In this document: piece after piece, positions 43,177 to 60,282 of the stretch
How positions within the stretch are numbered: the first letter of the stretch is position 1
Layout: every line of letters begins with the position of its first letter
Source of the DNA: Desulfocapsa sp.
GTDB lineage: Bacteria; Desulfobacterota; Desulfobulbia; Desulfobulbales; Desulfocapsaceae
Length of the DNA: 64,000 nucleotides
Direction of reading: 5' to 3'
Assembly (NCBI GenBank): GCA_024763035.1
Contig: JANTGG010000002.1
Coordinates: forward strand, 48,970 to 112,969
Program-made: the position numbers and the translations under genes
The notes under the pieces: generated by a model
What the model saw: only the letters and a program-made list of their open reading frames with translations
Told to the model about the DNA's origin: nothing
The model's database searches: none

Positions 43177-43320
43177 AATACCTTTTTTCCTCCAAACACT
43201 GATGAACAACAGGTGAGTCCGGCATAAGTGTACTCACCGGCAAAATCGTAAGGGATGTTTCAGAGTCTTCCCGGATTCAGCAACACGTTATAAACATTTA
43301 CAGGAACGGTCTTCCTGTGC

Positions 43321-43701
43321 TTAATGCAGGGCGATAAGTTCTCTTTGCCCCAGACTTTTCAGAAATGCAGTGACGGCATGTTCCGCCTCCTGCACGGTAA
43401 TATTGTGGCTTTTGGAGAAATTGTAGATGATCTCCTTAACACTTCTTTTTCCGTCAATCTGCTGCCAGACATGGCTCCCGAGTTTGTCGAGCTGCAGTTT
43501 TCTGGTGGGTGAGCCTCCCCTGTTTTTCCCAAATCGTTTGTACAACGCCAAAAAGAATGGGCTCAGCGGCAGTGGGTAGGTGAAGAGGATGCTGCCGTCA
43601 TCCAGCTCCTCCCAGTGAATGGTGTCGTTTCGTTTGGGGACGCATTGCAGTGCCTGGGAGCGGCTGGGGACGGAGTCGGATTTAGAGGGGAATAATGTCA
43701 T
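43321..43701 (-). CDS. PqqD-family (RRE-like) protein
   Basis: LDKLGSHVWQQIDGKRSVKEII...AEHAVTAFLKSLGQRELI winged-helix pattern with an N-terminal beta extension. Confidence 0.8.
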   Translation of the reverse strand: MTLFPSKSDSVPSRSQALQCVPKRNDTIHWEELDDGSILFTYPLPLSPFFLALYKRFGKNRGGSPTRKLQLDKLGSHVWQQIDGKRSVKEIIYNFSKSHNITVQEAEHAVTAFLKSLGQRELIALH

Positions 43702-44548
43702 AGCTGGCAAGAATAGCATGAATTGTTTTTTCGGGAAGCGGTTTTTTATCCTCGAAGAACAGACCGCTCAGGCGGTCTTCCCGCCGGTGGTGGCGGAGGG
43801 TCATCCAGTGAAAAGGCATTTTGCGTTTGAGCCTGATAAGGATCTGCTGGGAAATCGTCGGCTGAGACTGATAGCATACCGAATCGTCTTCATGGATAAC
43901 AGCTGCTGTGTCCACCGGGATATCACCGAGGGTGAGCATAATTTCTGCAAGTGATGCCGTTTGCAGCCGCTCTGCTGCGGGTGCCAGACGACAGACGTAG
44001 AGAGTGGTTCCAGCCCGGGAAAAGCTCAAGCGACTGAGACCTGCGGCAAAGCTGTAGTTGTCGAGAATAAAGTCTGCCGGGATTTGCAGCTGAAAGTCCT
44101 GAATGGCCCAGAGGGTGCAGTCATTTTCCTTCCCCGGATGACATTGCAGGGAACGCAGAAGGTTGTGAGAATCTTTCAAAGATCCGGCAGAGTCTTCAAA
44201 AAAGACGAGGATGCTGGTGTGACATTTCCTGCAGGTAAGGAGTGCTGCCTTTATGATGCTGTGTTTTTTTTCTGTGAGCAGTGAAACACTGTATGATGCT
44301 GTCAGTGCCTTCCAGGAAGAGGGGAGAGTGGTTTGCAGGCTAAGGTCTGATTCCTGCTGCAGGTTGCGCAGGACAGCGGCGTGCCTGTCTTTTGTGTTTG
44401 TATGCCAGCGCAGCTCGAAGACGGGCTGGAAATCCTGTTCAAAGACAAGGTGCCTGTTGCCGGAGACAAAGGTCTCCCAGTTCACAGGGCAGGAAAAGCT
44501 AATCCCGTTCCAGCCCACAGTTCTGCAGGTGGTGGTGCCATCATCCAC
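43682..44548 (-). CDS. Hypothetical protein coupled to the PqqD gene
   Basis: 288-aa ORF 5 bp after the upstream gene and overlapping pqqD by 20 nt; two similar W...F..P..W/F segments. Confidence 0.7.
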   Translation of the reverse strand: MDDGTTTCRTVGWNGISFSCPVNWETFVSGNRHLVFEQDFQPVFELRWHTNTKDRHAAVLRNLQQESDLSLQTTLPSSWKALTASYSVSLLTEKKHSIIKAALLTCRKCHTSILVFFEDSAGSLKDSHNLLRSLQCHPGKENDCTLWAIQDFQLQIPADFILDNYSFAAGLSRLSFSRAGTTLYVCRLAPAAERLQTASLAEIMLTLGDIPVDTAAVIHEDDSVCYQSQPTISQQILIRLKRKMPFHWMTLRHHRREDRLSGLFFEDKKPLPEKTIHAILASYDIIPL

Positions 44549-44553
44549 AACAG

Positions 44554-45138
44554 TTATCTGGGAATAAGAAAATCCCAGTTGTCCTTTTTGACCGGTTTAT
44601 TTTTTGGTCTGCGGGAGCTGCACTGTTCAGTAAAACATTTTTGCTCTGCGACAATACGGTCAGGATAATAGAGTTTGACCATGTTTCCGATATTTTCATT
44701 TGGATTTTTGCTGTTGTGCTGCAGAACCAGACTGACCCGGTTGTTGTTTTTGTCCACGAAGTTCCATTTCCAGATATGGAGGATACCGAAAGAGTCTCCT
44801 TTCCATTCAGTTGGTTTGCCATACTTCTTTTTGAACTTTTTGAGTAGTATTTGAAAATAGTCTTTGTCGGATTTATAATATTTTAATTTGATTTTGATGA
44901 TTTCCCCCGGGAATTTACAGATTCCATAAGAAATGATTCCCTTGTGAAAACCGTTCCAGTCGTAGACGACAACCTCCTTCATGTAATTTGAGTATTCAAT
45001 GTTCGGATAATCCGTGACATCACTGCCAAGAGCAATGCCGCCGACCTCGCTGGGAATTTTCGTTGCGGCATGTCCACTGGTGGAGAAAAAGAGACAAAGG
45101 ACGAAGAAGGTGATCCCTGAAAGAATAGATGATTTCAC
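44554..45138 (-). CDS. Secreted hypothetical protein
   Basis: Signal peptide (MKSSILSGITFFVLCLFFSTSGHA); heads the three-gene unit ending in pqqD. Confidence 0.72.
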   Translation of the reverse strand: MKSSILSGITFFVLCLFFSTSGHAATKIPSEVGGIALGSDVTDYPNIEYSNYMKEVVVYDWNGFHKGIISYGICKFPGEIIKIKLKYYKSDKDYFQILLKKFKKKYGKPTEWKGDSFGILHIWKWNFVDKNNNRVSLVLQHNSKNPNENIGNMVKLYYPDRIVAEQKCFTEQCSSRRPKNKPVKKDNWDFLIPR

Positions 45139-45350
45139 TGGAGTACTCCTGTAATAAGTGAAAGAAAATATATACTATCCATGTATCATGGAATAAAGTT
45201 TCCTTCCAGTGGAAATACATCTTGCAATAGTGTTATAATCCAGCGACAATCTTCTCAGTCCTTTCTCTGTATCTGCCAACCCGTTCTTCTGACGAACATT
45301 CAGCCGCTGAGAAGAAGAGTCTCAGGAGCTGATAATACCTTTTTTTTCTG

Positions 45351-47909
45351 ATGAATAAAAAACAAACAGAAACCAGTGTCCGTGTCACCGAACGTTCCCT
45401 TTTTTACTGGATCCTCCGGCGGCATCGGGGGATGCAGCTGATACTGCTGGTGGTCATTGTTGTCAGTCTGTTTTTTAAGGTGTTTCCCCTGGAGATGCAG
45501 AAACGCATTATCAACCGGGCCATTTATCTGCAGGATATCGACCTGCTCTTCCTGTATTGCGGACTGTATATCGGAGCCGTGACCATTGCCGGGCTATTGA
45601 AGTATGCCATAAATGTGCTGCAGGTTTCCATCGGTCAGAAAATCCTGGTCGAGATGCGTAATGAACTGTACAACCACGTCCTGCAGCTTCCCCTGCAGTT
45701 TTACCGGAAGATGCAGGCAGGGACGGTTATCTCGGCAATGACTGCCGAGCTGAATACCATCGGTTTTTTTCTCGGGGGTGCCATTGCTATTCCTGTGACT
45801 TCCATCCTCACTTTCCTCGTTTTTCTGATTTTTATGATTAATCTCAATCCCTGGCTGGCCCTTCTCAGCACGGGGATTTATCCGGTGGAACTGTTTGTTA
45901 TTCCCTGGCTGCAGAAAAAATATAACAATCTTAATAAAAAACGGGTGCAGACCACTCGGAAAATGTCCAACGTGGTAAATGAGGCGATTACCGGTATTCA
46001 TGAGATTCACGGGAATGCAAGTTATGGACTGGAAGAAAGGAAACTCTCCTCCTTTGTGGATAAGTTGTATGCGTTGATGCGGAGACTGTTTCTGGTGAAA
46101 TACGGGATTAAGTTCGCCAATAATCTCTTCCAGTCTTTCGGGCCGTTTTTTCTCTTTCTGGTGGGCGGGTATATGGCAATTCATGGTCAGTTCACCATCG
46201 GTGCACTTGTTGCCTTTCTTTCCGCCTATGAGAAAATATATGATCCGTGGAAGGAGATGATTGAGTACTACCAGAGCTATCAGGATGCTCAGATTCGATA
46301 TGCACAGATCATGTCTATTTTTGACCTTGATCCCCCCCATCTTCTGCTGCCCGACAATCGTGAGCTGCTCACCCTGCAGGGCAATCTGCAGCTCAATAAT
46401 GTCAGCTTTTCCGTGCCCGGCGGAGTGACTTTGCTGGAAGATATCAACCTTACGGTAAAGGCCAATGAACAGATTGCCCTGGTGGGATATTCGGGGTCCG
46501 GAAAATCCACTCTGGCACTGCTTATAGCTCAGCTCTACGATGCCAGTAAGGGAACTATCAGTATTGACGGCCACGATATCGAGGCAATGAGCAAGGCGGA
46601 TATCGGGAAGAATGTGGCAATGATTGCCCAGCAGCCGTTTATCTTCTCCGGAACGATTTCCGAGAATCTTCTTTACGGGATTAAATCCATCGCCGGGCGG
46701 GTCGAGAGCGTTGAGCGTGCAGAGATTATGGAGGTGGTTCGACAGGTCGGGCTGCAAAATGATATCCTCCGTTTCGGGCTGCAGTCTGTTATTACACCTG
46801 AGAAATGCCGTGCTTTTAAACAAAAATTTCTGCGTATGCGGCAGATAGTCTGTACCACATTGCGGAGTGAGTTTGAAAATGTGATCGAATTTTATGACGC
46901 ACAAAAATATCTGTACTATTCAAATATCAGGGATAATATCGTTTTTGGTGATTCTCTCACCGGTGAGTTTACAATCGAGCACCTTCCTGAGAATAAACCC
47001 TTTCTCAAGCTGCTCCGTGATCTAAGTCTTGAAAAACCTCTGATGACTCTTGGTTATGCCATAGCCACACAGACAGTGGCACTGCTCGCAGATTTTTATG
47101 ACGATGAGTTTTTCTTCCGTCATAATCCCATGGAGATGGTTGAGTACAGAACGTATCAGCAGTTGCTGGAGCGGATGAAGGGACCAGTTCCTGAGGACAG
47201 CGAGGCACGCCGCCTGTTACTGACCCTTGCACTCCGTTTTATTCCAAAAAAACACACCATTGTTTCCTTTCCGTCAGCTCTTGCAGAAAAGATCCTGCTG
47301 GCACGACGCGGCTTTCAGAAACAAATTGTCTTTATCGAGCCGTGTCAGGATCATGGGGAGTTTGCTCTCAAACCCGTCAGTCCGCAGACCGACGAGGAGC
47401 CCACATTTATTCCCTTCTGCCCCAGTGAATATCTATACTCCCGCACTCTTAGGGATAATATCCTCTTTGGTGCAGTAAAGTCAGAGGATATTCTCAATGA
47501 TCATTTCCGTGAACTGGCAGCCAGTGCCTTTGAGGATGAACAGCTGCTGGAAGAAATCATGGAAATTGGTCTGGAGTTTGATGTGGGCAGCAGGGGGGAC
47601 AGGTTGTCCGGCGGGCAGAAACAGAAGCTCGCCATTGCCCGGGCATTCTTAAAAGATGCTCCGATTATTATTCTTGACGAGGCAACTGCGAGTCTTGATA
47701 ATAGCTCGCAGGCACGCATTCAGGGCTTGCTGGAAAGCAAATATAAGGGAAAGAAGACAGTGATTGCTGTCATTCATCGTCTCGATCTGACTCCGGCATA
47801 CGACAGGATCTTTATGATGAAGTCGGGCAGGATTGTTGAACAGGGAAGCTATGACGAGTTAATGGCAAAGAAAGGAGACTTCTATGCACTTGCCAGAACA
47901 GAATCCTGA
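45351..47909 (+). CDS. ABC exporter (TMD plus NBD) with a large insertion inside the NBD
   Basis: Six-TM domain, GYSGSGKS, LSGGQKQKLAIARA, ILDEAT, IHRL; about 300 residues between the Q-loop and the signature motif. Confidence 0.9.
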   Translation: MNKKQTETSVRVTERSLFYWILRRHRGMQLILLVVIVVSLFFKVFPLEMQKRIINRAIYLQDIDLLFLYCGLYIGAVTIAGLLKYAINVLQVSIGQKILVEMRNELYNHVLQLPLQFYRKMQAGTVISAMTAELNTIGFFLGGAIAIPVTSILTFLVFLIFMINLNPWLALLSTGIYPVELFVIPWLQKKYNNLNKKRVQTTRKMSNVVNEAITGIHEIHGNASYGLEERKLSSFVDKLYALMRRLFLVKYGIKFANNLFQSFGPFFLFLVGGYMAIHGQFTIGALVAFLSAYEKIYDPWKEMIEYYQSYQDAQIRYAQIMSIFDLDPPHLLLPDNRELLTLQGNLQLNNVSFSVPGGVTLLEDINLTVKANEQIALVGYSGSGKSTLALLIAQLYDASKGTISIDGHDIEAMSKADIGKNVAMIAQQPFIFSGTISENLLYGIKSIAGRVESVERAEIMEVVRQVGLQNDILRFGLQSVITPEKCRAFKQKFLRMRQIVCTTLRSEFENVIEFYDAQKYLYYSNIRDNIVFGDSLTGEFTIEHLPENKPFLKLLRDLSLEKPLMTLGYAIATQTVALLADFYDDEFFFRHNPMEMVEYRTYQQLLERMKGPVPEDSEARRLLLTLALRFIPKKHTIVSFPSALAEKILLARRGFQKQIVFIEPCQDHGEFALKPVSPQTDEEPTFIPFCPSEYLYSRTLRDNILFGAVKSEDILNDHFRELAASAFEDEQLLEEIMEIGLEFDVGSRGDRLSGGQKQKLAIARAFLKDAPIIILDEATASLDNSSQARIQGLLESKYKGKKTVIAVIHRLDLTPAYDRIFMMKSGRIVEQGSYDELMAKKGDFYALARTES

Positions 47910-47910
47910 A

Positions 47911-48417
47911 ATGGAAGGGATTTCACATCTCACGGATACCCAGGAATTTATTGAGAAACTTGCGGTATTTGCAGGGGCTCCAGAGGGTGTTTCCAGGATG
48001 TTTGCCTATCTTGCCAGGAGAGAAAAATATAGCAAAGGACAGGTGATCCTCGAGCAGGGGAAAGAGTGTGACCGTTGTTTTCTCATTATCTCGGGACAGG
48101 TTGATATCTTTCAGATGCATCATGATCGACGGTTTCATGTGCAGCTGTTAAGCGATGATTCAATCAATTATTTCGGAGAGCTGGCACTGCTTGCTGAGTT
48201 TAACTGGTTTTTCTCGGCAAGGGCGTGGACAGATGTGGTGCTGCTCTCCATCAGCCGGGAGGCATTCAGCAAGGTGCTGGAGCGGTATCCGGAATCGTAT
48301 CAGAAGATGGTGCAGAAAATTATTACCCTTCGTATCCAACGTTTTTCTGCTCAGACCAGCTATCAGCTCGATCATCTTGCCCCGGATGCCTGGCGGGAGG
48401 ATCCGCCGGAGGAATAA
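47911..48417 (+). CDS. Stand-alone cyclic-nucleotide-binding domain protein
   Basis: ILEQGKECDRCFLIISGQV, YFGELALL; starts 1 bp after the ABC stop. Confidence 0.85.
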   Translation: MEGISHLTDTQEFIEKLAVFAGAPEGVSRMFAYLARREKYSKGQVILEQGKECDRCFLIISGQVDIFQMHHDRRFHVQLLSDDSINYFGELALLAEFNWFFSARAWTDVVLLSISREAFSKVLERYPESYQKMVQKIITLRIQRFSAQTSYQLDHLAPDAWREDPPEE

Positions 48418-48460: not shown

Positions 48461-48592
48461 TACTGAGCTATGTTTACTGCAGGAGCTCGCCCCTGCAGGC
48501 GATCCAGGGTGTTGCCAGACCTGGGAAATCGCTCGCCGGGGGGGGACTCCTGCGGTTCTACCTTGCGTGTATCTGTATTTCAGTGCTCAGTA
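48461..48592 (-). mobile_element. MITE-like family A, copy 3 (inverted, diverged, full REP-like core)
   Basis: Core 48478-48552 matches the reverse complement of 36919-36992; has its own terminal inverted repeat TACTGAGC/GCTCAGTA. Confidence 0.7.
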
Positions 48593-48595
48593 GTA

Positions 48596-48928
48596 TTATT
48601 TATGACAGGTCTTGCAGGATTTTCCTTTGGGCACCTTCATCTCTTTATGGCAGGGCCAGCACAGCTTCTTGTGGAAATCATTTCCCGAACCTTTTTTCTT
48701 CACAATATCAACAATAAGTGCACCGCCGCCGGCAGGATCTTTGTGGCATTTGGCACAGTCGACTTTTTCCTGGTGCATGTGATGAGGAAAGATAACGGCT
48801 GATTTTTTTCCTTCAAACTGGAACTTTTCCTTCAGGTTGATGGTTTCCGGTCCTTTCTCCGCTGCATAGAGGGATAGAGGAAGTGCGAGGAGGGCTGCCG
48901 CCGCAATACATTGAATCGTTCTTTTCAT
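48596..48928 (-). CDS. Periplasmic triheme class III cytochrome c (c7/c3-like)
   Basis: Signal peptide; FPHHMH; CAKCH, CWPCH, CKTCH. Confidence 0.9.
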   Translation of the reverse strand: MKRTIQCIAAAALLALPLSLYAAEKGPETINLKEKFQFEGKKSAVIFPHHMHQEKVDCAKCHKDPAGGGALIVDIVKKKGSGNDFHKKLCWPCHKEMKVPKGKSCKTCHK

Positions 48929-49030: not shown

Positions 49031-49696
49031 TCATGTGAAAAATTGTGCAAATTTATCAGGGGAATCCCTTGGCAGCCGGTAGCTGTTGATGGGAGCGTCC
49101 GTATCCTCATAGCCCAGTGCCATGCCTAAAAGCAGGATGTTGTCCTGCGGGTACCCCAGGACAGATTTAATAATCTCGGGATAGTCGGCAAGGGATGCCT
49201 GCGGGCAGGTGGCAAGTCCCTGTTCCACGGCAGCAAGCATAAACGATTGCAGAAACATGCCGTAATCAAGGAAGGAGCCGGTCTGCATGGTTTTGTCCAT
49301 AAAGAAGAGGAGCATAACCGGTGCATCAAAGGCACGATAATTAGCCGCCCATTGCTGCAGACGACCCTCTTTGTCATTTCGTACAATTCCAAGAACCTTG
49401 TACATCTGTCTGGCACAGTTCAGGCGGTGGGTCTTGTGGGGGTCGACCCATTCGTACGGATAATAGCGATAATCAGCGTTGCCTTCTGTGCCCTTTTCAA
49501 AGGAGGCAATGATCTGATCCTGCAGACGCTGCTTGGTTTTGCCGCTTACCACTGCCACCCGCCATGGCTGCATATTTGTGCCTGAAGGGGCATGGGCTGC
49601 AAGTGTCAGGAGTTTTGTGATGGTGCCAGGATCAACTTCTTTATCCAAAAAAGCACGAACCGATTTTCGCTGTTGCAGGGCGTGAGAGACATTCAT
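49031..49696 (-). CDS. Nitroreductase family protein
   Basis: RKSVRAF, APSGTNMQPW, FDAPV, GLATCPQ. Confidence 0.9.
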   Translation of the reverse strand: MNVSHALQQRKSVRAFLDKEVDPGTITKLLTLAAHAPSGTNMQPWRVAVVSGKTKQRLQDQIIASFEKGTEGNADYRYYPYEWVDPHKTHRLNCARQMYKVLGIVRNDKEGRLQQWAANYRAFDAPVMLLFFMDKTMQTGSFLDYGMFLQSFMLAAVEQGLATCPQASLADYPEIIKSVLGYPQDNILLLGMALGYEDTDAPINSYRLPRDSPDKFAQFFT

Positions 49697-49802: not shown

Positions 49803-51761
49803 TCAATATGCCATATGTCCCAGGGATTTCATAATAAGGGCCAGTCCCATGGCAAACATGCCGGTGAGTCCCATACCGCAGGAGAATCCGGCAAGGAGCA
49901 CGGGGGCATACTGTCGCCACATGGGACCGTAGCGTTTGAGGAAAAAATAACGACCGGCAAACGCTCCGATCACTTCCAGGATAAGGCCATGGGGGGTGGA
50001 TTGGCCCAGTCCGCGCACCACTCCGTATATAAGGAGTATGGGCAGTCCGAAAAGACTCAGTATAAAATACATGATAAGTCCAAAACCAAGACCTGAAAAC
50101 ACTGTGGTACCGTTTAATGCCTGGTAGAACATGGAGTTGCCTTCCAGGGTTGAAGTCTGCATCAGCAGGGTGTTCAGGGCCTGCAGGTGCCACAACTCCT
50201 GGGCGTATGGATAGGCGGAAGAGGGGATGGGGGCCAGCCGCCAGATGAACTGGGAAAAGAGCAGACTTGCCACCATAACAATGGGAAAGACCACAATCTC
50301 GGCCTTGATGATTCCCCGAAGAGATGTGCCGGTGAGTTCAATCTGTCGAAACTGAACCGTTGCCTCCCCGTAGTTGTGGATGGGAATGGGAGCGTACCAG
50401 ATCTCAATTCCGTGATAGCCGAAAAAACGTGCTCCGGCAATAAAACTTGCCTCCCGCACCAGGGGCAGGCTGACAAACTGACCGGCGATTCCCTCCATTC
50501 TGGCAGTGATGTAAGAGATTACAGGGGTATAGATGAAACCGTAACCGAGAAAGAATATCCATGGAAAGGAAGGAACAAGCCAGACACAGAGTGCCACATA
50601 GGCAAGCGTGGAAAAAACGTAAATACCGATGGCTATCCAGAAATCAAAATCTCCCCGCCCTTCAGGCGGATGAAACAGATCACGCAGGGTTCCCATATCC
50701 GCCCTGGTGTGACGGTATGAGCGAAACACCGACCAGACTCCGATAACGCCAATGGCGAGCCCCAGTCCGATGCCAAAACTCATATAGAAATCAAAGTTAT
50801 TGGCAAAAACCGTGTCCACTGTTGCCATGCCGGGATGCCAGCGCTGCAGCACACCGTGGGCATAGAGGATGGGGTTCAGGATAATGGTGATGAGAAGACC
50901 GATCAACCCGCCGATAACAGCCCAGAACGGCAGCACCATCCCGATAAAAACAAGCCCGAGATCTAGCTGTATCCCGGTGGCAACGGCAGGCAGGACATCT
51001 TCGGTGTGATTGGTGAGTTCAACCCAGGGGATAGGGATAAGGTGGATTGGTTCATTGAAGATCAGTCCGGAGGCAATGGGCAGAAGTACGTAAATCGAGC
51101 CGAACAGCAGCCCGATGACTCCGCCGATGGAAAACACCCGCCACTTCCAGCTTTTCTTCTTTTCCTCTGTGGATTCGGCAAGTGCCATGGTCCCAAGAGC
51201 CCCAACGGGAGCCATGGGAAAGGGGAGCTTCTCCACATCCGAGGTGATGCGGTAGAGGGCATAGCCCAACCCGAAATGATCAATGCGCTGAATGATCTGG
51301 GAGCCCACAAGGAGGAGGATGGGAATCAGCCAGTCTCGGTGGAAAAATGACCGTTCCACCATGGAAAGCGATTCGGGGGCGGGCGCTACCCAGCTGGGGA
51401 TATATTCGGTCAGTCCAAGCATTCGTGCTGCATCAGACTGAACCAGGTACTGATTCCAGAGCAGCCCGGAAAAGGGGGAGGCAAGGGCTGCACCCGCCAT
51501 ATAGTAGAGCAGGAAAATCTCCTGTTGTTTCAATTCGGAGTGGGCGCGCTTTGCCACTTCCGCAAAGAGGATGATGGTCACCCAGCGGGCGGCGGGGCCT
51601 ATCCCCTGACCGATAACGAGCTGCAGGTACATGGAGCCCGGCATCATCAAAAAGCCGATAAAGACAGCCCCCACCACAGTCTTCCAGTCAAACCCCTCTT
51701 CGAAATGATCAGGAGGTTTTAGAAGGTCTCGATATTCTTTAAGTTCCTTGTCGTCGTACAT
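49803..51761 (-). CDS. OPT-like polytopic membrane protein (putative peptide transporter)
   Basis: About 16 hydrophobic segments; N-terminal GFDWKTVVGAVFIG and EKLPFPMA motifs resembling the OPT family. Confidence 0.72.
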   Translation of the reverse strand: MYDDKELKEYRDLLKPPDHFEEGFDWKTVVGAVFIGFLMMPGSMYLQLVIGQGIGPAARWVTIILFAEVAKRAHSELKQQEIFLLYYMAGAALASPFSGLLWNQYLVQSDAARMLGLTEYIPSWVAPAPESLSMVERSFFHRDWLIPILLLVGSQIIQRIDHFGLGYALYRITSDVEKLPFPMAPVGALGTMALAESTEEKKKSWKWRVFSIGGVIGLLFGSIYVLLPIASGLIFNEPIHLIPIPWVELTNHTEDVLPAVATGIQLDLGLVFIGMVLPFWAVIGGLIGLLITIILNPILYAHGVLQRWHPGMATVDTVFANNFDFYMSFGIGLGLAIGVIGVWSVFRSYRHTRADMGTLRDLFHPPEGRGDFDFWIAIGIYVFSTLAYVALCVWLVPSFPWIFFLGYGFIYTPVISYITARMEGIAGQFVSLPLVREASFIAGARFFGYHGIEIWYAPIPIHNYGEATVQFRQIELTGTSLRGIIKAEIVVFPIVMVASLLFSQFIWRLAPIPSSAYPYAQELWHLQALNTLLMQTSTLEGNSMFYQALNGTTVFSGLGFGLIMYFILSLFGLPILLIYGVVRGLGQSTPHGLILEVIGAFAGRYFFLKRYGPMWRQYAPVLLAGFSCGMGLTGMFAMGLALIMKSLGHMAY

Positions 51762-52009: not shown

Positions 52010-54007
52010 TCAGTTTGGCAGTACCTGATAGCCGGAATCCGTAAACAGACCGACAATTGCCCAGCCGCCGCCCATAAGGAAATCGCCGATGATAAGTCCG
52101 ATAAAGAAAAACTGGATTTTCTTAAAAAGGGACACGCCGCCGTACCGCATGCATAAGGCGTTGCATGCCCAGCCGATAAAAAAACTTATCCAGAGGATAC
52201 GCATGGCAGAACTGTAGGCGGTAAGATAGCCAAGGGGATGAATGGGCCACCAGTAAAAACGGTGGTAGCAGAGCACCAGAACCAGCATGACCACAGCACC
52301 GAGAAGGGCAAAGGCGGTGATCCATCCACCGGCATCCACAGGTGTTGTAATCAGCCTGTTGATATTTTCAAACATTGTCATGACTGTACGGCTGGACCAT
52401 TCAACCTGCAGCTCGCGGATGCCATAACGGTAATAGAGTGTCATCATGGCAAGGATTGAGGCACCGGTACTGATCAGGATGGTAAAGAACAGTCCGGAGA
52501 AAAGAAGCACCCCGGGGCGATGGCCATGCTGCAGTTTTCTGGCATGCTGCAGGGAGGGCATCAGGGATTCCCGAAGATCCACGAAAAGCATTTTTTGAGC
52601 CATACCGCTGAGAACACTGTTTATCCCGGAAAAGAGCTTGCTTCCGCCCATAACAAGTAGTCCGTCCATGGGGGCAGCAGTGAGAGTGAAGTAGGCAAGT
52701 CCACCCTGACAGATAATCCGGGTTGCCACAAGCATAATCATAAAGCCTGCACAGAAGAAGAGAAAGGCTGTGGAGAGGGCCATGCCAAGGGCTGTCGCCC
52801 AGTAGAGCAGCCCGGCAAAGCAGAGTATGCAGCCCCAGAAGGAAATGCGAACGTCAAACCATTCGGTTCTGGCAGAATGGGATTTTGTCAGAAAGAGGGA
52901 TTGTTTCGTGACATTCAAAAGATGTCTGCGTGCAAGCCACAGGAGAAAGAAAAAGAACACCCCGTAGGCACCGAGCATCTGGGTCTCTTCAGGGCGGGCA
53001 AGGGTGGGACCGAAGGTGATGCCAAGTTCTGAGACAGGTATGTTGTACCCAAGGAACCCGAGGAAACCAAAAAAGAAGCCGCCCAGGATAAAAAAGAACC
53101 AGAAACTGAACGAGATCTGTCTGGAGGTGAGAAAGGCAAATCCGATAAAGGCGGGATAGATGTAGATCTTCAGTTTGTGAAAGCCAGCCAGTAACCCGTG
53201 GTTGGGGAAATAAGGACCTGCCAGAATCAGGGTCGGCAATTGGGGGACAGAGGGATAATAAAAATGAAATCCATTCAGCAGATGGAGAAAGACCGGGATC
53301 AGCAGACCGGCGAGGAGAAAGCGGTTGGCAAAAAAACTGCCCACCTGACCTTCGTCCAGTGATTTGCTGAGCATTTCCGGCACACGGAGCAGCGGAAAGC
53401 TGATGCGTTCGTTATGAATCCACTGGCGGGAAAGCAGGTTGATAACAAAGAGCATGAACCCGTAGGAGAGCAGAATAAATGTTCCCCACACGAGTAGCGG
53501 GCTTGTCCATGCCTGCCAGGGGATATTTTGCACAACCTCCAGCCAGCCCATATCCCGTCCGCCATGCAGACCGGTATAGAGCAGGTCAATGGCTGCGTTA
53601 TCTGTGGGAGTGAGGGCTGCAGGCAGGAGTGGATGCAGACTTTCCTGCCACATATTACCAACATTTGCATGCTGGATGGGAATGGTCAGGCTGAGGAGGA
53701 AGGTCCTGGCAAGCCCGGTGTAGGCGATTCCTGAACCGATAACCATCTCAATCCACACTACAAGCAGCTCGCTGCCCGTGAAAAGGGGCAGGGAAGTGCG
53801 GAAAATTTTTTTGCCAAGGGCTGTCAGGATAATAAGCAGGACAAAAATAAAGAAGGGAGCAAGGGGAAAATGTCCGCCGCCAAGGGGGGTTGCCTGCTGG
53901 TAGATATTGTTAAAAGGGGTCAGCAGACAGATGGCAACAGCCAGTATCATTCCTGCGGTAACGGCACGCAGGCGGATAGCTCTCCTTTTTGTGTTCTTTT
54001 CAGCCAT
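52010..54007 (-). CDS. Polytopic membrane protein, probably DUF6785 family, OPT-like (start ATG 54007)
   Basis: RAVTAG N-terminus, QWIHNERISFPL, WWPIHPLGY, FFIGLIIGD motifs recalled for this family; 8-nt overlap with the upstream gene. Confidence 0.65.
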   Translation of the reverse strand: MAEKNTKRRAIRLRAVTAGMILAVAICLLTPFNNIYQQATPLGGGHFPLAPFFIFVLLIILTALGKKIFRTSLPLFTGSELLVVWIEMVIGSGIAYTGLARTFLLSLTIPIQHANVGNMWQESLHPLLPAALTPTDNAAIDLLYTGLHGGRDMGWLEVVQNIPWQAWTSPLLVWGTFILLSYGFMLFVINLLSRQWIHNERISFPLLRVPEMLSKSLDEGQVGSFFANRFLLAGLLIPVFLHLLNGFHFYYPSVPQLPTLILAGPYFPNHGLLAGFHKLKIYIYPAFIGFAFLTSRQISFSFWFFFILGGFFFGFLGFLGYNIPVSELGITFGPTLARPEETQMLGAYGVFFFFLLWLARRHLLNVTKQSLFLTKSHSARTEWFDVRISFWGCILCFAGLLYWATALGMALSTAFLFFCAGFMIMLVATRIICQGGLAYFTLTAAPMDGLLVMGGSKLFSGINSVLSGMAQKMLFVDLRESLMPSLQHARKLQHGHRPGVLLFSGLFFTILISTGASILAMMTLYYRYGIRELQVEWSSRTVMTMFENINRLITTPVDAGGWITAFALLGAVVMLVLVLCYHRFYWWPIHPLGYLTAYSSAMRILWISFFIGWACNALCMRYGGVSLFKKIQFFFIGLIIGDFLMGGGWAIVGLFTDSGYQVLPN

Positions 54008-57000
54008 GTGTACTTTCTCCCGTACCTGCTGCCTGCCTGCTTTTTTCCGTGAACTCCAGGAAGTGTTTGCCATAGTATGTGTGGCTGGCAGCATCAGTGG
54101 AACGCCAGACCAGCAGCTGTTTGCGTATTTCATGGAGAAAAGAGGTGGCGATTCGTTTCCAGATCTGTTCTTCACCGGAGCGGCGTTCCATGCTGATCTT
54201 TATTTCCAGATAGGAAGAGTCCTCCCGTGCCGGACAGAACTGGATGTCAACCCGCTGCATGATGCCGAAGTCAAAGGGGGCGAGCCAGACATTTGCCCGG
54301 AAATAGGTACAGTGGATTTCGTGGGGTTTATCACTGGCATTGATGACATCCCGCATCTCATCGATATTGCAGCAGCTCGAAACAATTTCCACGGGACCTG
54401 TGGAAAAAAGACCGTGGGAGACATCCTGATGGGAGGAAAAATAGTTGTAGATAAAACCGCAGATGGAGTTGTGTTCGCTGTATTTCATAAAAAACGGAAG
54501 GGTAACAGTGATACGGTTATTAATCACCGGCGGCAGGCTGAATGATGCATTCACATCGGGAATGGCTATGCGGGCGGCAACACGTGAGGGATAAACAACA
54601 GAGAGAAGGACAACAGCAATAACAAGAATCATGGCGGCAACACCTGCCATGGAGGAGTAGTTCACTGTGAGTCCTGCCCAGAGGGGCGTGTCTGCAAAGA
54701 GCGAGGCGGATACCTGCGCCAACAGGTATCCGAGAACCACCGAGATTACAGCCAGAGCCAGCGCTTCAGCCACAAAGAGAAAGGAAACATGGGAGGGGGC
54801 AAGTCCCACGGAGGTATAAATGGCAATCTCATTTTTTCGTTCGTAGACGGAACTGATCATGGTGTTGAGAACGATGAGGATGGAGATAAACAGCGGAATG
54901 AGAATATTGGGGACACCGCTGTACTGCATGGATTCATTCTGGTTGTAGAGGTAGACCCCGTCTTTCTCACCGGCAAAGATGGCAGTGGAAAACCGGTCTG
55001 TCATACGTTCAGCAGTTTTGCTGATGGGTGTTTCGGCATTTGGCAGGACGGCAAGGTTCTTAAGTTTTCCTCCCAGGGTAAGGAGGGTGGAGGCGGGAAT
55101 AATTCCAACCCGGGAAGCCGGGATATGGTGATAGCGGCTCTGGAAGGAGCGGACATCATCCCCTGATTCCATGGCATCCTTTTCCACTTCGGTGATGTCC
55201 CCTGCTGATTCGTCGGGGAAGGTCACGGGGGTAAGCGGTTCGCCGTCAAGATCCAGAGTCTGGTCAAAGTCTGTTCCCTTAAAAGTACCGACCACTGTGA
55301 AGGGGCACCCCCATATCTGTACGCTTGCCGAACCATCCGTTGCTATACTAAGAGCATTTACCATATCTTCACTGAGAATGATTGCCGCCCGGTCGTTTTT
55401 ATTGAACCAGCGTCCGCCCGTGAGCAGTTTGTCCAGCCCGGTGACCTGTGCTTCGGCGGGGGAGAGCCCGATCAGTCCCTGCAGCTCGGCATGTTTCCTG
55501 CCATTTTGCAAAGAGATGTGGACTGTCTGTGCCGGATTTTTTGCTTCCAGCCAGATGCGTGGTGCCACGCTGCCGGCATTTTGAAAGCCGTCAGCAAGTC
55601 CGTCCACTGCCTCCACCGGCAGGCTTCGCCAGTCCACCTGTTTTAAGAGCAGTCCCAGGTAGGGAGAGTGTTCCTGGAAGAACAGTTTGTTCTGTCTGGT
55701 CCCGGATTTTACCGTGGTAAAACTCATAATGGTAAAGGTAAGGATAATAAGGGTCAGACATGTGAGAATGGTGCGCATCCTTCGCCGCCGCAGGTTGGAG
55801 ACCCCGAGGAAGAATGCTGCTGTAAAGGCCTTCCAGTGACTGATCTCTGCCGGTCGTTTATGACTGGCACGCCGCTGCAGGAGGATCATCTCTTCTTCGA
55901 AACGAAAGAAGATGATAAGACTCACCATCAGCGAGAGACCCAGGATGAAAAAGGCGAGGATCACCACCGTTGGACTGTACGCCAGGCGGAATGCCGGATG
56001 AACCTGATAGATCACGGTTATCAGCAGAAAGAGGATGGTGGAAAATCCCACAATACGTTTGTAGATATTGGCGAAATTGAAGAGAAAACGTTCCATGCAG
56101 AAGGCAAACGGCACAAAGAGGGCAATGTAGAACAGTACCCCGAAGAGCACATCCTTCTGGGTCTTTTCCACTTGCACATACACACGGTTGGCAAGGGCAA
56201 GGGACTCTGAGGAAAAGCTGGAAAACCGGGCGTAATCAAGGTTTTTGAGGCTGTCTCCGGCATTGAGTAATGCCGTGATACCGCGTTCTTCAAGGTTGTT
56301 GATCTTGGCATCAAAAATGCCGTGGTTCTCCAGATTCTGTATCCGGGGAGCAAGCAGTGTCCAGATGTCGCGGGCCGCCTGATAGACCGTGTTGGGTATT
56401 GTCTGGTATTTGTCCACGGAGTAGCCGAGTCCCATTGGGTTTTTTTCCGTGCCGTTGGTGAGTATCATCTTCCGGTTGAGCACATTATCGGAGAGGGTGG
56501 CTTTCAGCCAGGTTCCCGGTTCGGTATAGATGGATGCCATGGTGGAATCACGGGTATCTATGCGGCTGTACCAGTAGTGCTGCGGCGGAGCATCCCGTCG
56601 TCCGTCGAAGAGCTTGAGCTTGGTGAGATAGTTGAAATTACGGGGTTCAAGCAGACCGAAGATTGTGGTTTGCCGGCAGCTGAAGAGGATCAGATCCGTT
56701 TTAACCAGCCGTTTTTTTATCTTCACCCGATAGTGTTTTTTGCCAGTTTCTTTTTTGTCTATTGCCCAGATGACCTGCCCTGTTTTCTCGTCAAACCGGT
56801 AGCCTTCAATAATCAGCTTATCGAGTACATGCTTTTTGTCGGCAATCCCCTTGATCCGAAAGATGCCGGAAGAGTTGACGGTTGTATGGTATTTCTGCAT
56901 GCCCTGATAGGCAAGGAGGACGGTCTTGGCAGCGGGGTAATCGGCAAAGAGCTCACCCTGCAGGAGCAGGTTTGCACGTCCACGGATGGTGGAAAAACCG

Positions 57001-58841
57001 TTTCGCGGTTTCTTGCCGGTGTGCAGGGGCGCGGTGCCGGCAAGGGTCTCAATCATATCTCCCACAAGAAGAGCCTGCTCTTCCAGACTCTTCCAGTTGA
57101 TATGCTTTGGAATATCCCAGGGGGTACCCCATAATGCCCGGGCATCTCCGGTGGTGACCAGACTGATGCCGACATAGCCGGCAAGGGATGCCACTTCTCC
57201 GCCCAGCGGAGGTTTGTCAAGAAACCAGGAGTCCCAGGAACGCATGTGGCTGGAGTGCAGAGTGTCGTGATAGGGGGTCGTGCTGCTGCTTGCGGCAACA
57301 GTTTCTTCAAGAAGATCGGCAATGGGGGAGAAGATACCTGTGCGATTCACCTGCATCTTCAGGTTGTATAAAAATCCCTGGTGAAAAGCCCCTATTCCAT
57401 TGCCATGACTGGAGAGATGGAGGGAAACCATGGCAGCAATGTCATAGCCTTCAACCAGTTCCCGAAAGGCATAGGCACTCTTCAGGTTCTTGAGATGTGT
57501 TTTGAGTTCTTTTTTTCGGCGTTTATTGGTCTTTATGGAAGCGGGAACAGCAGCCAGAAAGAGTTTGTGCTCATCGTCGCCCAGATCGTGAAAGCTGCTT
57601 CGCCAGCCCATCCTTTTGTAGAGCAACCGTGTTCTGGAGAGTTCATTAATATTTTTTTTCCTTTCTTCGCTCTTGTCGCTAGCCATTCGCAGAGTGTTGA
57701 GTCTGCGGGAGATATCATCCACGGAGAGTTTGATATAGTCGCTCATTGCCTCGCTGAGTACCGAGTCCCTTTCCATATCTTCGGTGAGGGGCCAGCTGAG
57801 CGATTCCAGAACGGCAAGATTGGCACTGGTTTGTTTCAGATCTTTTTTCAGCTGTTTTTTCTGTTTTTTTAAATATTTTGATTTGGAGTTGATGGACCAG
57901 ATAAGATCTCGCATTCCGGCAAGGGATTCATTGTGACCACTTGTGGCAACGAAGAGCACCGATTTCTTTGGTGGATTTTTTCTCAGTCTGTCAATGGTCT
58001 GCAGCAGGGTGGCAATGGAGGCAGCTTCATCGGCGCCGGGTGCTTTGCCGGAAACAAAGGAGGAACTGTCGTAAAACGCCTCTATGACCAGTAGCTGTCT
58101 GGCAAGTTCCGGATCTGTGCCGGGAATAACAGTGTAAATATTTTCTGCGGTGATTTCCTGCCACTGAACCCGGCTGTTGATATTTACTTTTTCTGCAAGT
58201 AGACCGGGCGTGTCGGGAAGAGTTATTGGCAGAGTGGAGAGAAATTGTTGTAATCCCTGCTTTTCCATCCAGAAGCAGGGGAGCTGGATGGGAGTGAGCT
58301 CCTCTTTTTCCTGGAACATATATTTTGAATGTACATCCTGGGTGTTCAGGTAGATAATCGCCTTAACACCCAGTGCCGCCAGCTGCTGCCACCGTTGTCC
58401 GGAATCAAAATCCAACACCACCACAGCTCCGGAAAGGGGCAGTCCCTGCAGGTCTGACCAGGTGCCTGATTTTACGTAGTAGAGTGGGCCGCTCAAGGCA
58501 CCATCTGTTGTTTCCGGGGTAATGGCATTATAGAAAAGGGTGTTGAGTGCAAGTGTTTTCCCATCTATCTGCAGGTTGGCGTCTTTCACCTTGCGTACAG
58601 TCAGGGCAAAACGGTAGGTTTCAGGGGTGAGTCCCATCTGCTGCAGCTGCGCTTTGATAAAAGCCGCACTTTCCCTGCTTCCTTCACTGCTGCCTGTTCT
58701 TTCGGAGAAACTGCTGAAGGTTTCTATCTGCTGTCGCAGGGACAGGGAGGGGACAGCTGCTGTTTTGGCAGAGACAGGGTAAAGAAAGAGAGCTGCAAGA
58801 AAAAACAGCAGTCCGGTTCTGTGGAGAGAAGAGGAAGACAT
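54000..58841 (-). CDS. 1613-aa fusion: M28-peptidase-like/PA domain, TM bundle and MacB/FtsX permease
   Basis: Signal peptide; EAFYDS...PGADE and FVATSGH M28-like motifs; NLRRRRMRTILT (MacB TM1); SVYERKNEIAIYTSVG (FtsX). Confidence 0.8.
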   Translation of the reverse strand: MSSSSLHRTGLLFFLAALFLYPVSAKTAAVPSLSLRQQIETFSSFSERTGSSEGSRESAAFIKAQLQQMGLTPETYRFALTVRKVKDANLQIDGKTLALNTLFYNAITPETTDGALSGPLYYVKSGTWSDLQGLPLSGAVVVLDFDSGQRWQQLAALGVKAIIYLNTQDVHSKYMFQEKEELTPIQLPCFWMEKQGLQQFLSTLPITLPDTPGLLAEKVNINSRVQWQEITAENIYTVIPGTDPELARQLLVIEAFYDSSSFVSGKAPGADEAASIATLLQTIDRLRKNPPKKSVLFVATSGHNESLAGMRDLIWSINSKSKYLKKQKKQLKKDLKQTSANLAVLESLSWPLTEDMERDSVLSEAMSDYIKLSVDDISRRLNTLRMASDKSEERKKNINELSRTRLLYKRMGWRSSFHDLGDDEHKLFLAAVPASIKTNKRRKKELKTHLKNLKSAYAFRELVEGYDIAAMVSLHLSSHGNGIGAFHQGFLYNLKMQVNRTGIFSPIADLLEETVAASSSTTPYHDTLHSSHMRSWDSWFLDKPPLGGEVASLAGYVGISLVTTGDARALWGTPWDIPKHINWKSLEEQALLVGDMIETLAGTAPLHTGKKPRNGFSTIRGRANLLLQGELFADYPAAKTVLLAYQGMQKYHTTVNSSGIFRIKGIADKKHVLDKLIIEGYRFDEKTGQVIWAIDKKETGKKHYRVKIKKRLVKTDLILFSCRQTTIFGLLEPRNFNYLTKLKLFDGRRDAPPQHYWYSRIDTRDSTMASIYTEPGTWLKATLSDNVLNRKMILTNGTEKNPMGLGYSVDKYQTIPNTVYQAARDIWTLLAPRIQNLENHGIFDAKINNLEERGITALLNAGDSLKNLDYARFSSFSSESLALANRVYVQVEKTQKDVLFGVLFYIALFVPFAFCMERFLFNFANIYKRIVGFSTILFLLITVIYQVHPAFRLAYSPTVVILAFFILGLSLMVSLIIFFRFEEEMILLQRRASHKRPAEISHWKAFTAAFFLGVSNLRRRRMRTILTCLTLIILTFTIMSFTTVKSGTRQNKLFFQEHSPYLGLLLKQVDWRSLPVEAVDGLADGFQNAGSVAPRIWLEAKNPAQTVHISLQNGRKHAELQGLIGLSPAEAQVTGLDKLLTGGRWFNKNDRAAIILSEDMVNALSIATDGSASVQIWGCPFTVVGTFKGTDFDQTLDLDGEPLTPVTFPDESAGDITEVEKDAMESGDDVRSFQSRYHHIPASRVGIIPASTLLTLGGKLKNLAVLPNAETPISKTAERMTDRFSTAIFAGEKDGVYLYNQNESMQYSGVPNILIPLFISILIVLNTMISSVYERKNEIAIYTSVGLAPSHVSFLFVAEALALAVISVVLGYLLAQVSASLFADTPLWAGLTVNYSSMAGVAAMILVIAVVLLSVVYPSRVAARIAIPDVNASFSLPPVINNRITVTLPFFMKYSEHNSICGFIYNYFSSHQDVSHGLFSTGPVEIVSSCCNIDEMRDVINASDKPHEIHCTYFRANVWLAPFDFGIMQRVDIQFCPAREDSSYLEIKISMERRSGEEQIWKRIATSFLHEIRKQLLVWRSTDAASHTYYGKHFLEFTEKSRQAAGTGESTHG

Positions 58842-58867: not shown

Positions 58868-59596
58868 TCAGCTGTTCATCCCTCCCGTATGAATTTCCAG
58901 TTCGTCCCGTTCCTGAATCTTCTCCACCTTTCCGTCCCGAATCCAGATAACCTGATCCGAGACGTTCAGCATTTTGAAATCATGGGTGGCTGAAATAACC
59001 GTTACCCCCTGGTTTGCACTCATCTCTTTTAAGAGAGAAATGACCTCTTCACCGGTTGCCAGGTCGAGGTTGCCGGTGGGTTCATCGGCAAGGATGATGG
59101 CGGGACTGTTTGCAAGGGCACGTGCCACGGCAACCCGCTGCTGCTGACCGCCGGAGAGCTCAGACGGCTTGTGGTTATGACGCCCTTCCAGCCCCACCTG
59201 CCTGAGCAGTTTCATGCCGCGTTCAGTGGAGGCTTCTCCCGGCATGCCGCCAAAGGTCATGGGCAGGGTGACGTTTTCCAGGGCTGTCATCACAGGAATC
59301 AGGTTGAATGTCTGAAAGATATAGCCGATCTTTCGGCAGCGAAGCCAGGCGAGTTCGTATGCGTCGAGTTGAGCAATATCCACTTCATCAATAAAGACCT
59401 TCCCCGCAGTTGGTTTGTCCAGTCCTCCTATCATGTTGAAGATAGTGGATTTTCCTGATCCAGATGGACCCATGATTGAGACATATTTACCGGTTTCAAT
59501 GCTGAGGTCGATCCCTTTCAGGACCTTGACCACGATTTTCCCGAGATCAAAATCTTTTGTGACATCGGTTACCCGAACGATATTTTTTACACTCAT
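58868..59596 (-). CDS. LolD/MacB-type ABC ATPase
   Basis: GPSGSGKST, LSGGQQQRVAVARAL, LADEPTGNLD, ATHD. Confidence 0.93.
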   Translation of the reverse strand: MSVKNIVRVTDVTKDFDLGKIVVKVLKGIDLSIETGKYVSIMGPSGSGKSTIFNMIGGLDKPTAGKVFIDEVDIAQLDAYELAWLRCRKIGYIFQTFNLIPVMTALENVTLPMTFGGMPGEASTERGMKLLRQVGLEGRHNHKPSELSGGQQQRVAVARALANSPAIILADEPTGNLDLATGEEVISLLKEMSANQGVTVISATHDFKMLNVSDQVIWIRDGKVEKIQERDELEIHTGGMNS

Positions 59597-59631: not shown

Positions 59632-60282
59632 CTACTGTTCTACACGCATTGCCTCAACGGGCTGCATCCGGGAGGCTATTATCGCCGGATACAAAACCCC
59701 AATGAGGCTGAGACTGATTCCAATAAGTACGGATGTTGCCATGGAGAGAACAAAAGACTGATAGGGAGGGGTGGCAAATGCCTCACTTCCGAAACGAAAC
59801 CAGGCAGTGAGAACGGCAAACAGACCCCCGCCCAGAGCACCAATGACTGCCCCGGCAAAACCCTGCATGGCAGCTTCCATGACAAAGATACGAACGATAA
59901 AGCGGTCAAGTGCCCCCAGACATTTCATGGTGCCGATTTCCCGGAAGCGTTCGCTGACGGACATCAGCTGGGCATTAATAATGCCCACGATGCAGACCAG
60001 CATGGAGAGGGTGAGAATCCACCGCTGTTTGGGAGATGATGCGAGACTGGTATCTCCGGGGAGCACGTCATAGCCGCAGCGGATAAGGGTCTGGCACGTG
60101 GTGTTGTCACCGCTTGCAAGCATTCCATCTGCGATATTGATGCTGATTTGGGAAAATGCCAGAAAGGAAACGGCGAGAACCAGGGTTACAGTGGTGACGA
60201 TGGAGCGAAAGAAGCGGGCACGGATTGATTTGTAGGCAATCTCCACGGATTTGCTCCAGGGCAGCACGATAAGGCGGCTCAT
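59632..60282 (-). CDS. Minimal FtsX/MacB-type ABC permease with almost no periplasmic domain
   Basis: SIRARFFRSIVT (TM1), a loop of about 40 aa, SVSERFREIGTMKCLGA. Confidence 0.85.
   Translation of the reverse strand: MSRLIVLPWSKSVEIAYKSIRARFFRSIVTTVTLVLAVSFLAFSQISINIADGMLASGDNTTCQTLIRCGYDVLPGDTSLASSPKQRWILTLSMLVCIVGIINAQLMSVSERFREIGTMKCLGALDRFIVRIFVMEAAMQGFAGAVIGALGGGLFAVLTAWFRFGSEAFATPPYQSFVLSMATSVLIGISLSLIGVLYPAIIASRMQPVEAMRVEQ

Follow-up and report, generated by a model that had tools for sequence, protein, structure and literature searches.

A PqqD-like protein with RRE fold and two co-encoded partners as probable members of a DUF6785-containing envelope machine in Desulfobacterota

The window considered here is a stretch of 64,000 nucleotides from Desulfocapsa sp. 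(assembly GCA_024763035.1, contig JANTGG010000002.1, positions 48,970 to 112,969 of the forward strand), and this analysis concerns three adjacent genes within it, which encode an exported protein (S), a 288-residue protein that belongs to no named family (U) and a PqqD-family protein (Q) with the fold of the recognition elements (RREs) of peptides that are made by ribosomes and modified after translation (RiPPs). Five other genes of the window, F-A-G-O1-O2, form a core operon for two FtsX-type permeases, an ATP-binding cassette (ABC) ATPase and two further membrane proteins, the first of which carries DUF6785; they are taken to encode an as yet undescribed ATP-driven envelope machine. Comparative sequence evidence makes it very likely that S, U and Q belong to this machine. 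Taken as a whole, and with rather less assurance, S-U-Q is best regarded as an accessory to it, in which U and Q would form a peptide-binding adaptor and S would be a periplasmic component. According to an initial annotation, the orphan RRE may have come away from the DUF6785/OPT-like/M28-FtsX system as a part of it; both synteny and phyletic co-occurrence, unlinked genes included, support this proposal.

Synteny among related genomes is weak evidence, since the housekeeping neighbours UDG, DivIC, TatC and SerRS keep their places as well, and a phyletic sample of 401 genomes, drawn evenly from the phylum Desulfobacterota, was therefore used. DUF6785 was found in 24 of these genomes. U occurs in 12 of the 401 and S in 20, the 12 with U being also those with the Q subtype (E ≤ 1e-39), and every one of these genomes is DUF6785-positive; U, the Q subtype and S are found in none of the 377 DUF6785-negative genomes. 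The association of U with DUF6785 gives a Fisher p of 9e-17, or 3e-13 when the sample is collapsed to genera. The pattern covers eight families and is kept where the genes are not linked: they lie 3.7 Mb apart in one genome (G206) and 95 kb apart in another (G264), and are on different contigs in four more (G040, G366, G160 and G319). Hence, chance synteny is ruled out. The Q subtype is cleanly separate from generic PqqD matches elsewhere, which reach only 1e-9 to 1e-11 and are partial, and word-limited searches with the U and Q alignments gave only Desulfobacterota-type matches.

S does not follow U and Q throughout. It is present without them in 10 machine-bearing genomes, as a stand-alone gene in unrelated contexts, and is absent from two genomes (G028 and G067) that have both U and Q. 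By these distributions the unit is composite, S differing from the pattern that U and Q share. S is also often found with only the ABC-exporter/cyclic-nucleotide-binding pair described below. Replacement partners were considered for the genes next to S in U/Q-negative genomes and were rejected, because the surroundings of S differ from case to case and have no relation to one another (PPDK-like, TPP enzyme, RNR, PMT_2, Omp85).

Gene order was compared in about 140 related loci taken from assemblies, GTDB genomes and metagenomes (loci, genomes, contigs and families are designated by L, G, C and f numbers). In Desulfobulbales the genes most often run F-A-G-O1-O2-S-U-Q, all colinear and separated by short gaps (L054, L055, L085, L090 and many more); over all loci, O2 lies upstream of S at a distance of no more than 6.5 kb in 50 of 60. 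The adjacency of pqqD and 288-residue homologues to DUF6785/OPT/M28-FtsX genes, which had been suggested as a check, was thus observed in most Desulfobulbales, and co-occurrence and synteny with the transporter operon, the two signs by which the link was to be judged, are both present. These orders show S-U-Q as the 3' end of the core operon in what appears to be the ancestral Desulfobulbales arrangement. A further pair of genes, an ABC exporter (X) and a cyclic-nucleotide-binding protein (N), varies in position. It is inverted between O2 and S in the Desulfocapsa-like lineage to which the window belongs, colinear between O2 and S elsewhere (L001, L088, L098, L141, L148) and convergent after Q in other loci (L166, L178, L192-L196). 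A single family (G028, G067) has no S and places Q at the head of the core operon and U at its end, and in five loci where S-U-Q is detached from the core (L045, L046, L047, L048, L049), it goes with X-N.

The arrangement in the window is best read, from this comparison, as the ancestral operon split by the inverted X-N insertion and here by a nitroreductase gene as well, with the result that S-U-Q now lies 4.7 kb off, behind an intergenic region of its own. The distance of about 6 kb downstream of the operon, given in the initial annotation, was approximate: measured from the start of S, the stop codon of O2 (49803) lies at 4.7 kb and the DUF6785 gene at 6.9 kb.

The three open reading frames (ORFs) were confirmed as co-directional minus-strand genes, Q matching PqqD and S having a Sec-type N-terminus. 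U starts with GTG 5 nt past the stop codon of S. Alignment of orthologues makes the ATG at 43701 a likelier start of Q than position 43719, which gives Q an overlap of 20 nt with the end of U. Pooled over all loci, S is followed by U in 90 of 102 and U by Q in 81 of 84; the median gap between S and U is 11 nt, and an overlap between U and Q, mostly of 20 or 14 nt, was seen in 84 of 92 loci. When only S-anchored loci are counted, S is followed by U in 39 of 51, and among these U is followed by Q in 34 of 35. The clustering of S, U and Q is far beyond chance, and U and Q are, to judge from their overlapping frames, a translationally coupled pair. A promoter scan gave no sigma-70-like site on the minus strand upstream of S, so that the promoter of S-U-Q can only be presumed. 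A terminator-like hairpin follows Q directly, and the number of terminator-like sites in the region is within the expectation from shuffled sequence. None of the three proteins has a match among defence-system models.

Q matches the Pfam family PF05402 (PqqD) over residues 76-129 with 35 bits, above the gathering score of 23.4, and falls far below the cut-offs of every curated PqqD subfamily in NCBIfam (lasso B1, PQQ PqqD, ScmD and GeoRSP); it scores 29.5 against TIGR03859 (PQQ PqqD; cut-off 46) and 31.9 against NF033536 (lasso_PqqD, B1 chaperone; cut-off 80). The AlphaFold2 (AF2) model, with a predicted local distance difference test score (pLDDT) of 85.5, has strands at residues 22-24, 29-32, 38-43 and 66-70 and helices at 73-81, 88-99 and 103-119, together with an inserted helix at 48-57. 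Beyond the canonical fold of three strands and three helices, Q has an additional strand at its N-terminus, a short helix that is conserved (R..AL) and the insertion at 48-57. The best Foldseek matches are solved RREs: TbiB1 with its leader peptide (5v1u, TMt 0.80-0.82), which is the closest, lasso B1 6JX3 (TMt 0.79), PqqD 5SXY (0.71) and, from MibB and MadB, their RRE domains. A profile of Q searched against PDB sequences found lasso PqqD-type chaperones and TbiB1 (E 3.6e-7 and 9e-6). On the strength of model and profile, Q is a genuine RRE-fold protein.

The leader-binding cleft of characterized RREs is formed by alpha3 and beta3 (PMC12710340). Among 86 Q orthologues, conservation peaks in the beta3 strand before alpha1 (KLQLD) and in alpha3 (EAE..V..F...LG.RG), which fits a predicted peptide cleft that is functional. 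Two other PqqD-family genes occur in this genome, both unrelated to U or to the machine. One (C17:14539-17724, L004) encodes a 94-residue PqqD protein. The gene that follows was considered as a relative of U and rejected; its product has 289 residues and a Walker A motif, and to the eye is HPr-kinase-like. The other (C64:5995-9177, L006) encodes a PqqD-Peptidase_M50 fusion and adjoins a gene for a GAF-HlyD protein.

In genome mining, a PqqD-like gene near transporters is taken to point strongly to a RiPP cluster (PMC7470986). The initial annotation had noted that neither a radical-SAM enzyme nor a precursor was visible here, and wider searches bore this out. None of the 34 matches to PF04055 in the genome lies on the 122-kb contig that holds the window. 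A Pfam search of the sizeable ORFs from 29.8 to 63.9 kb found no peptide-modifying enzyme (radical SAM, YcaO, lanthipeptide dehydratase, lasso B2/C or MNIO). For the precursor, all ORFs of 18-110 residues outside known genes were clustered over 59 loci (58 related loci and the window), and neither S-U-Q nor X-N had a conserved small ORF next to it. Apart from shadows of known genes, nothing recurred but an FmdB-type zinc-ribbon gene (Zn_ribbon_8); this gene is conserved between UDG and DivIC in Desulfobulbales (L003:10421-10630, L001:10980-11183 and 34 other loci) and is missing from the detached S-U-Q modules of other families, and is hence unrelated to the unit. With modifying enzyme and precursor both looked for and neither found, Q does not qualify as a member of an RRE-dependent RiPP cluster. 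It seems, as far as gene content tells, that a fold known only from peptide natural-product pathways is used here with no such pathway present.

U has no family match in Pfam, NCBIfam or PADLOC, and PDB sequence searches with U and S gave nothing significant. Its own family is large, with 676 cluster representatives (50% identity) at E ≤ 1e-3. The AF2 model (pLDDT 86) consists of two similar domains, each a beta-sheet plus helix, which Foldseek relates to PsbP, Mog1 and BT_1490 with a probability of 0.98-1.0, but with TM scores of 0.3-0.46 and E values of 6e-4 to 5e-2. U was considered as an enzyme or zinc protein, and this was rejected: a CxxC...CH pattern is invariant in Desulfobulbales and lost in other families. 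Across the wider family only P, F, G, R and A residues are invariant, and neither conserved catalytic or metal-binding residues nor a cofactor motif was found. Since no cysteines are kept and the invariant residues are limited to these five types, U is argued to be a scaffold or binding protein. At one locus, a gene for a 310-residue protein, a Rpn/transposase-type nuclease by eye, is inserted between S and U (L052:7804-8736, G390 C77); Q of the same genome sits at the edge of another contig (C34:146-496).

S likewise has no match in Pfam, NCBIfam or PADLOC. Its N-terminus is of the Sec type (MKSSILSGITFFVLCLFFSTSGHA|AT), and after it come a conserved domain that has two conserved cysteines, a variable, charged, low-complexity linker and a tail ending in ...NWDFLIPR. 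All 52 homologues examined have a signal-peptide-like N-terminus and the tail W-x-x-L-[IV]-P-[RKQN], which is nearly always at the very C-terminus; in S of the window (44554-44600) and in its homologues, for instance L045:9222-9824 and L162:9992-10594, it lies at the C-terminus or within 3 residues of it. The tail resembles a docking or sorting tail, and we know of no described motif of this form.

From these properties, a role can be proposed for the three proteins. U and Q would together be an adaptor in the cytoplasm, holding a peptide or else an extended protein segment on behalf of the machine, the basis for treating them as one adaptor being their translational coupling and single phyletic pattern. 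Q would not be a binder of leader peptides for a modifying enzyme; it may act as a peptide chaperone, a role that its modelled fold and the conservation of its cleft would fit. S would be on the periplasmic side, where a partner may be docked by its tail, which is carried on a flexible charged linker.

Several points weigh against this role. The evidence is wholly comparative, and many of the sampled genomes are related, so that synteny is partly inherited; UDG, DivIC, TatC and SerRS are equally syntenic across Desulfobulbales. The comparative analysis identified no binding partner or ligand of U or Q. For a docking site, F, A, G, O1 and O2 were compared between genomes with and without U-Q, and no group-specific block was seen, the only difference being one of 2-5 residues at the C-terminus of the ATPase. 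The Foldseek matches of U are weak (TM 0.2-0.46), and the term Mog1/PsbP-like scaffold is a reading of the predicted structure at the level of fold only. Finally, half of the machine-bearing genomes (12 of 24) are without U-Q, and from 8 of these the PqqD family is missing altogether; U-Q must hence be dispensable, and the machine works without it.

Coordinates of S-U-Q, of the core operon and of neighbouring features are collected in Table 1. The order F-A-G-O1-O2 is conserved in related loci. A homologue of G (in L001) gives a weak match to Peptidase_M28. O1 is present as a single copy in the genome; its longest ORF overlaps the end of G by 175 nt and its Pfam domain begins at residue 68, so that the true start is probably downstream of the one listed. 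No mention of DUF6785 or DUF6784 was found in the literature searched. In families f83 and f99, both without U and Q, O2 is followed by a gene for a protein of 444-484 residues (L063:7535-8869, L064:6610-7998, L065:7268-8722), the N-terminus of which resembles a DUF2064/TIGR04282-type glycosyltransferase and seems to be fused to a GT2-like domain.

Table 1 Features of the window discussed in the text (positions are those of the window)
Feature	Position	Strand	Description
Terminator-like hairpin	43300..43318	minus	directly 3' of the Q stop codon; consensus match only
Q	43321..43701	minus	PqqD/RRE-fold protein, 126 aa from ATG 43701; longest ORF 43321-43719, 132 aa
U	43682..44548	minus	288-aa predicted cytoplasmic protein of unnamed family, tandem Mog1/PsbP-like domains (AF2, Foldseek)
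S	44554..45138	minus	194-aa exported protein; signal peptide, two conserved cysteines, conserved C-terminal tail
S/X divergent intergenic region	45139..45350		212 nt; presumed promoters of both units
X	45351..47909	plus	852-aa ABC exporter, type IV fold; Pfam ABC_membrane and ABC_tran, in two stretches
N	47884..48417	plus	177-aa cyclic-nucleotide-binding protein, PF00027; overlaps the end of X
110-aa ORF	48470..48802		between core operon and X-N; not conserved
Nitroreductase gene	49031..49696		between core operon and X-N; generic
O2 (unk652)	49803..51761	minus	652-aa membrane protein, last core gene; no Pfam/NCBIfam family
O1	52010..54175	minus	DUF6785 + DUF6784 membrane protein; PF20581 (E=6e-161), PF20580
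G	54000..58841	minus	1613-aa giant permease, C-terminal FtsX domain; PF02687
A	58868..59596	minus	ABC ATPase; PF00005
F	59632..60282	minus	small FtsX-type permease; PF02687

Between the core operon and X-N, the nitroreductase gene and the 110-residue ORF were found in none of the related loci and look like recent insertions or, for the latter, a spurious ORF; the nitroreductase was considered as a SagB-type RiPP dehydrogenase and rejected. The nucleotide-binding domain of X is split by an insert of about 300 residues. N adjoins X almost always in related loci, and it matches PADLOC models of Pycsar TIR effectors (E ~1e-10) through its cyclic-nucleotide-binding domain only, no effector domain being found. 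X-N was seen beside S in L045-L049, L127-L133, L166 and L192-L196 as well.

The alternative that survives best, although it is unlikely, assigns U and Q to X and N rather than to the type VII core. They would then present a peptide or protein client to the exporter, and S would be the periplasmic member of an X-N-S-U-Q sub-system. Such a role would agree with the five core-detached S-U-Q loci that go with X-N, with the closeness of X to S, no more than 5.5 kb in 38 of 54 loci despite four different orientations, and with X-N-S units that have nothing related to U-Q downstream (L153, L157, L162 and others); N also has a weak match (E=0.011) to the NCBIfam family 'bacteriocin-type transport-associated protein'. 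Against this stands the distribution of X itself, as none of the 24 DUF6785-positive genomes lacks an X-type gene, not even the 12 that have no U-Q, and the genome of the window has a paralogue (G000 C12:29315-30277) that is 46% identical in the insert, which shows that X is not specific to U-Q. Moreover, 16 of the 54 loci have no X within 5.5 kb, Q directly precedes F-A-G and U directly follows O2 in G028 and G067, and the clustering of small ORFs yielded no client gene.

Slightly less likely still is that S is itself the client, with U and Q as a dedicated cytoplasmic pair for chaperoning or maturation that acts on pre-S before its export by Sec. A precedent is found in the bufferins, where RRE partners of RiPP precursors with Sec signals are known, namely DUF2063/BufC together with MNIO enzymes (PMC12710340, PMC11626156). 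The kept order and tight spacing of S-U-Q, as in the S-anchored counts of 39 of 51 and 34 of 35, would suit such a pair, as would the two conserved cysteines and the invariant C-terminal motif of S. The same tail is borne by S in the 10 genomes that have neither U nor Q, while in G028 and G067 the pair persists without S; in addition, no MNIO (DUF692) or other maturase family was found nearby, and the family-wide lack of conserved catalytic residues or a cofactor motif in U does not favour maturation.

It is very improbable that the likeness of Q to an RRE is superficial and that the protein regulates the locus by binding DNA through a winged helix. The RRE fold is derived from the winged helix, a basic N-terminal tail is common in Q orthologues and transcription factors are frequent false positives in searches for RREs (PMC12710340). 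Nevertheless, Q scores above the PqqD gathering threshold of Pfam, its best matches in both sequence and structure are solved RRE-leader complexes and not regulators, and it is translationally coupled to U within operons of structural genes. The weakest alternative, by which S-U-Q lies near the transporter operon through inherited gene order and has no functional link to it, has the equal synteny of the housekeeping neighbours on its side and is scarcely credible in view of the co-occurrence in eight families and in unlinked arrangements, the persistence of the association through repeated reshuffling of gene order and the absence of U, the Q subtype and S from all 377 DUF6785-negative genomes.

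Beyond the accessory role preferred here, a bolder and decidedly tentative extension may be considered, one that we regard as doubtful although less so than the alternatives above. An RRE-fold protein would have been recruited from natural-product biosynthesis as a subunit of a new envelope machine, a line for the capture, translocation and hand-over of peptides. On the cytoplasmic side of a type VII ABC motor wired to OPT-like permeases, Q and U would receive or present a peptide, and S would plug its W-x-x-L-I-P-R tail into a zinc-less M28-like head as a tethered ligand or adaptor. If true, such a line would resemble no described transporter.

The Q family would be a systematic exception for genome mining, a leader-binding fold that is under selection in a machine without precursor or modifying enzyme. 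The three proteins offer handles on an unstudied and widely conserved ABC/OPT-like system, Q as a putative soluble peptide binder, U as its scaffold partner and S as an exported protein with a terminal motif; the ligand of Q would be likely to reveal what the machine handles. This analysis adds the family of S and the motif at its end, the mobility of the X-N pair and the view that the window shows an operon split by insertion.

Among known systems, Q is most like the RREs of lasso-peptide B1 proteins (TbiB1 5V1U/5V1V, 6JX3, 9X90), which are its best structural matches (TMt 0.79-0.82, probability 1.0) and which, like Q, are small, stand-alone proteins with three C-terminal helices and a strand before alpha1. 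Q differs from them in the extra strand, in the inserted helix 48-57 and in being always paired with U, and its locus is unlike lasso pathways in that no B2 protease, lasso cyclase or precursor was found nearby. With PqqD of pyrroloquinoline quinone (PQQ) biosynthesis, Q shares membership of PF05402 and the fold (5SXY, TMt 0.71), whereas the contig has no PqqE-type radical-SAM enzyme and the locus no pqqA/B/C-like neighbours. As in the bufferin/DUF2063 systems, an RRE-type protein is encoded beside a protein with a Sec signal; unlike in those systems, no MNIO/DUF692 enzyme was found, S is a folded protein of 170 residues and not a short cysteine-rich peptide, and S and U-Q differ in phyletic pattern.

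The core is like type VII ABC systems such as FtsEX-EnvC/PcsB/CwlO with SweCD, MacAB-TolC and LolCDE, in having a pair of FtsX-type permeases, an ATPase of MacB/FtsE type and additional small proteins that are co-encoded. To our knowledge, none of the described type VII systems has a cytoplasmic partner of RRE or Mog1/PsbP-like fold, OPT-like co-permeases or a periplasmic protein like S, and no paper joining PqqD with FtsX or MacB was found in the literature searched. U is set apart from PsbP and Mog1 by its low TM scores, the lack of sequence similarity and its tandem architecture; for each of its halves, Foldseek gives a probability of 0.98-1.0 to PsbP, Mog1 and BT_1490, all non-enzymatic binding modules, and the DUF1795/Eag chaperones of type VI secretion system effectors are Mog1/PsbP-like binding proteins as well.

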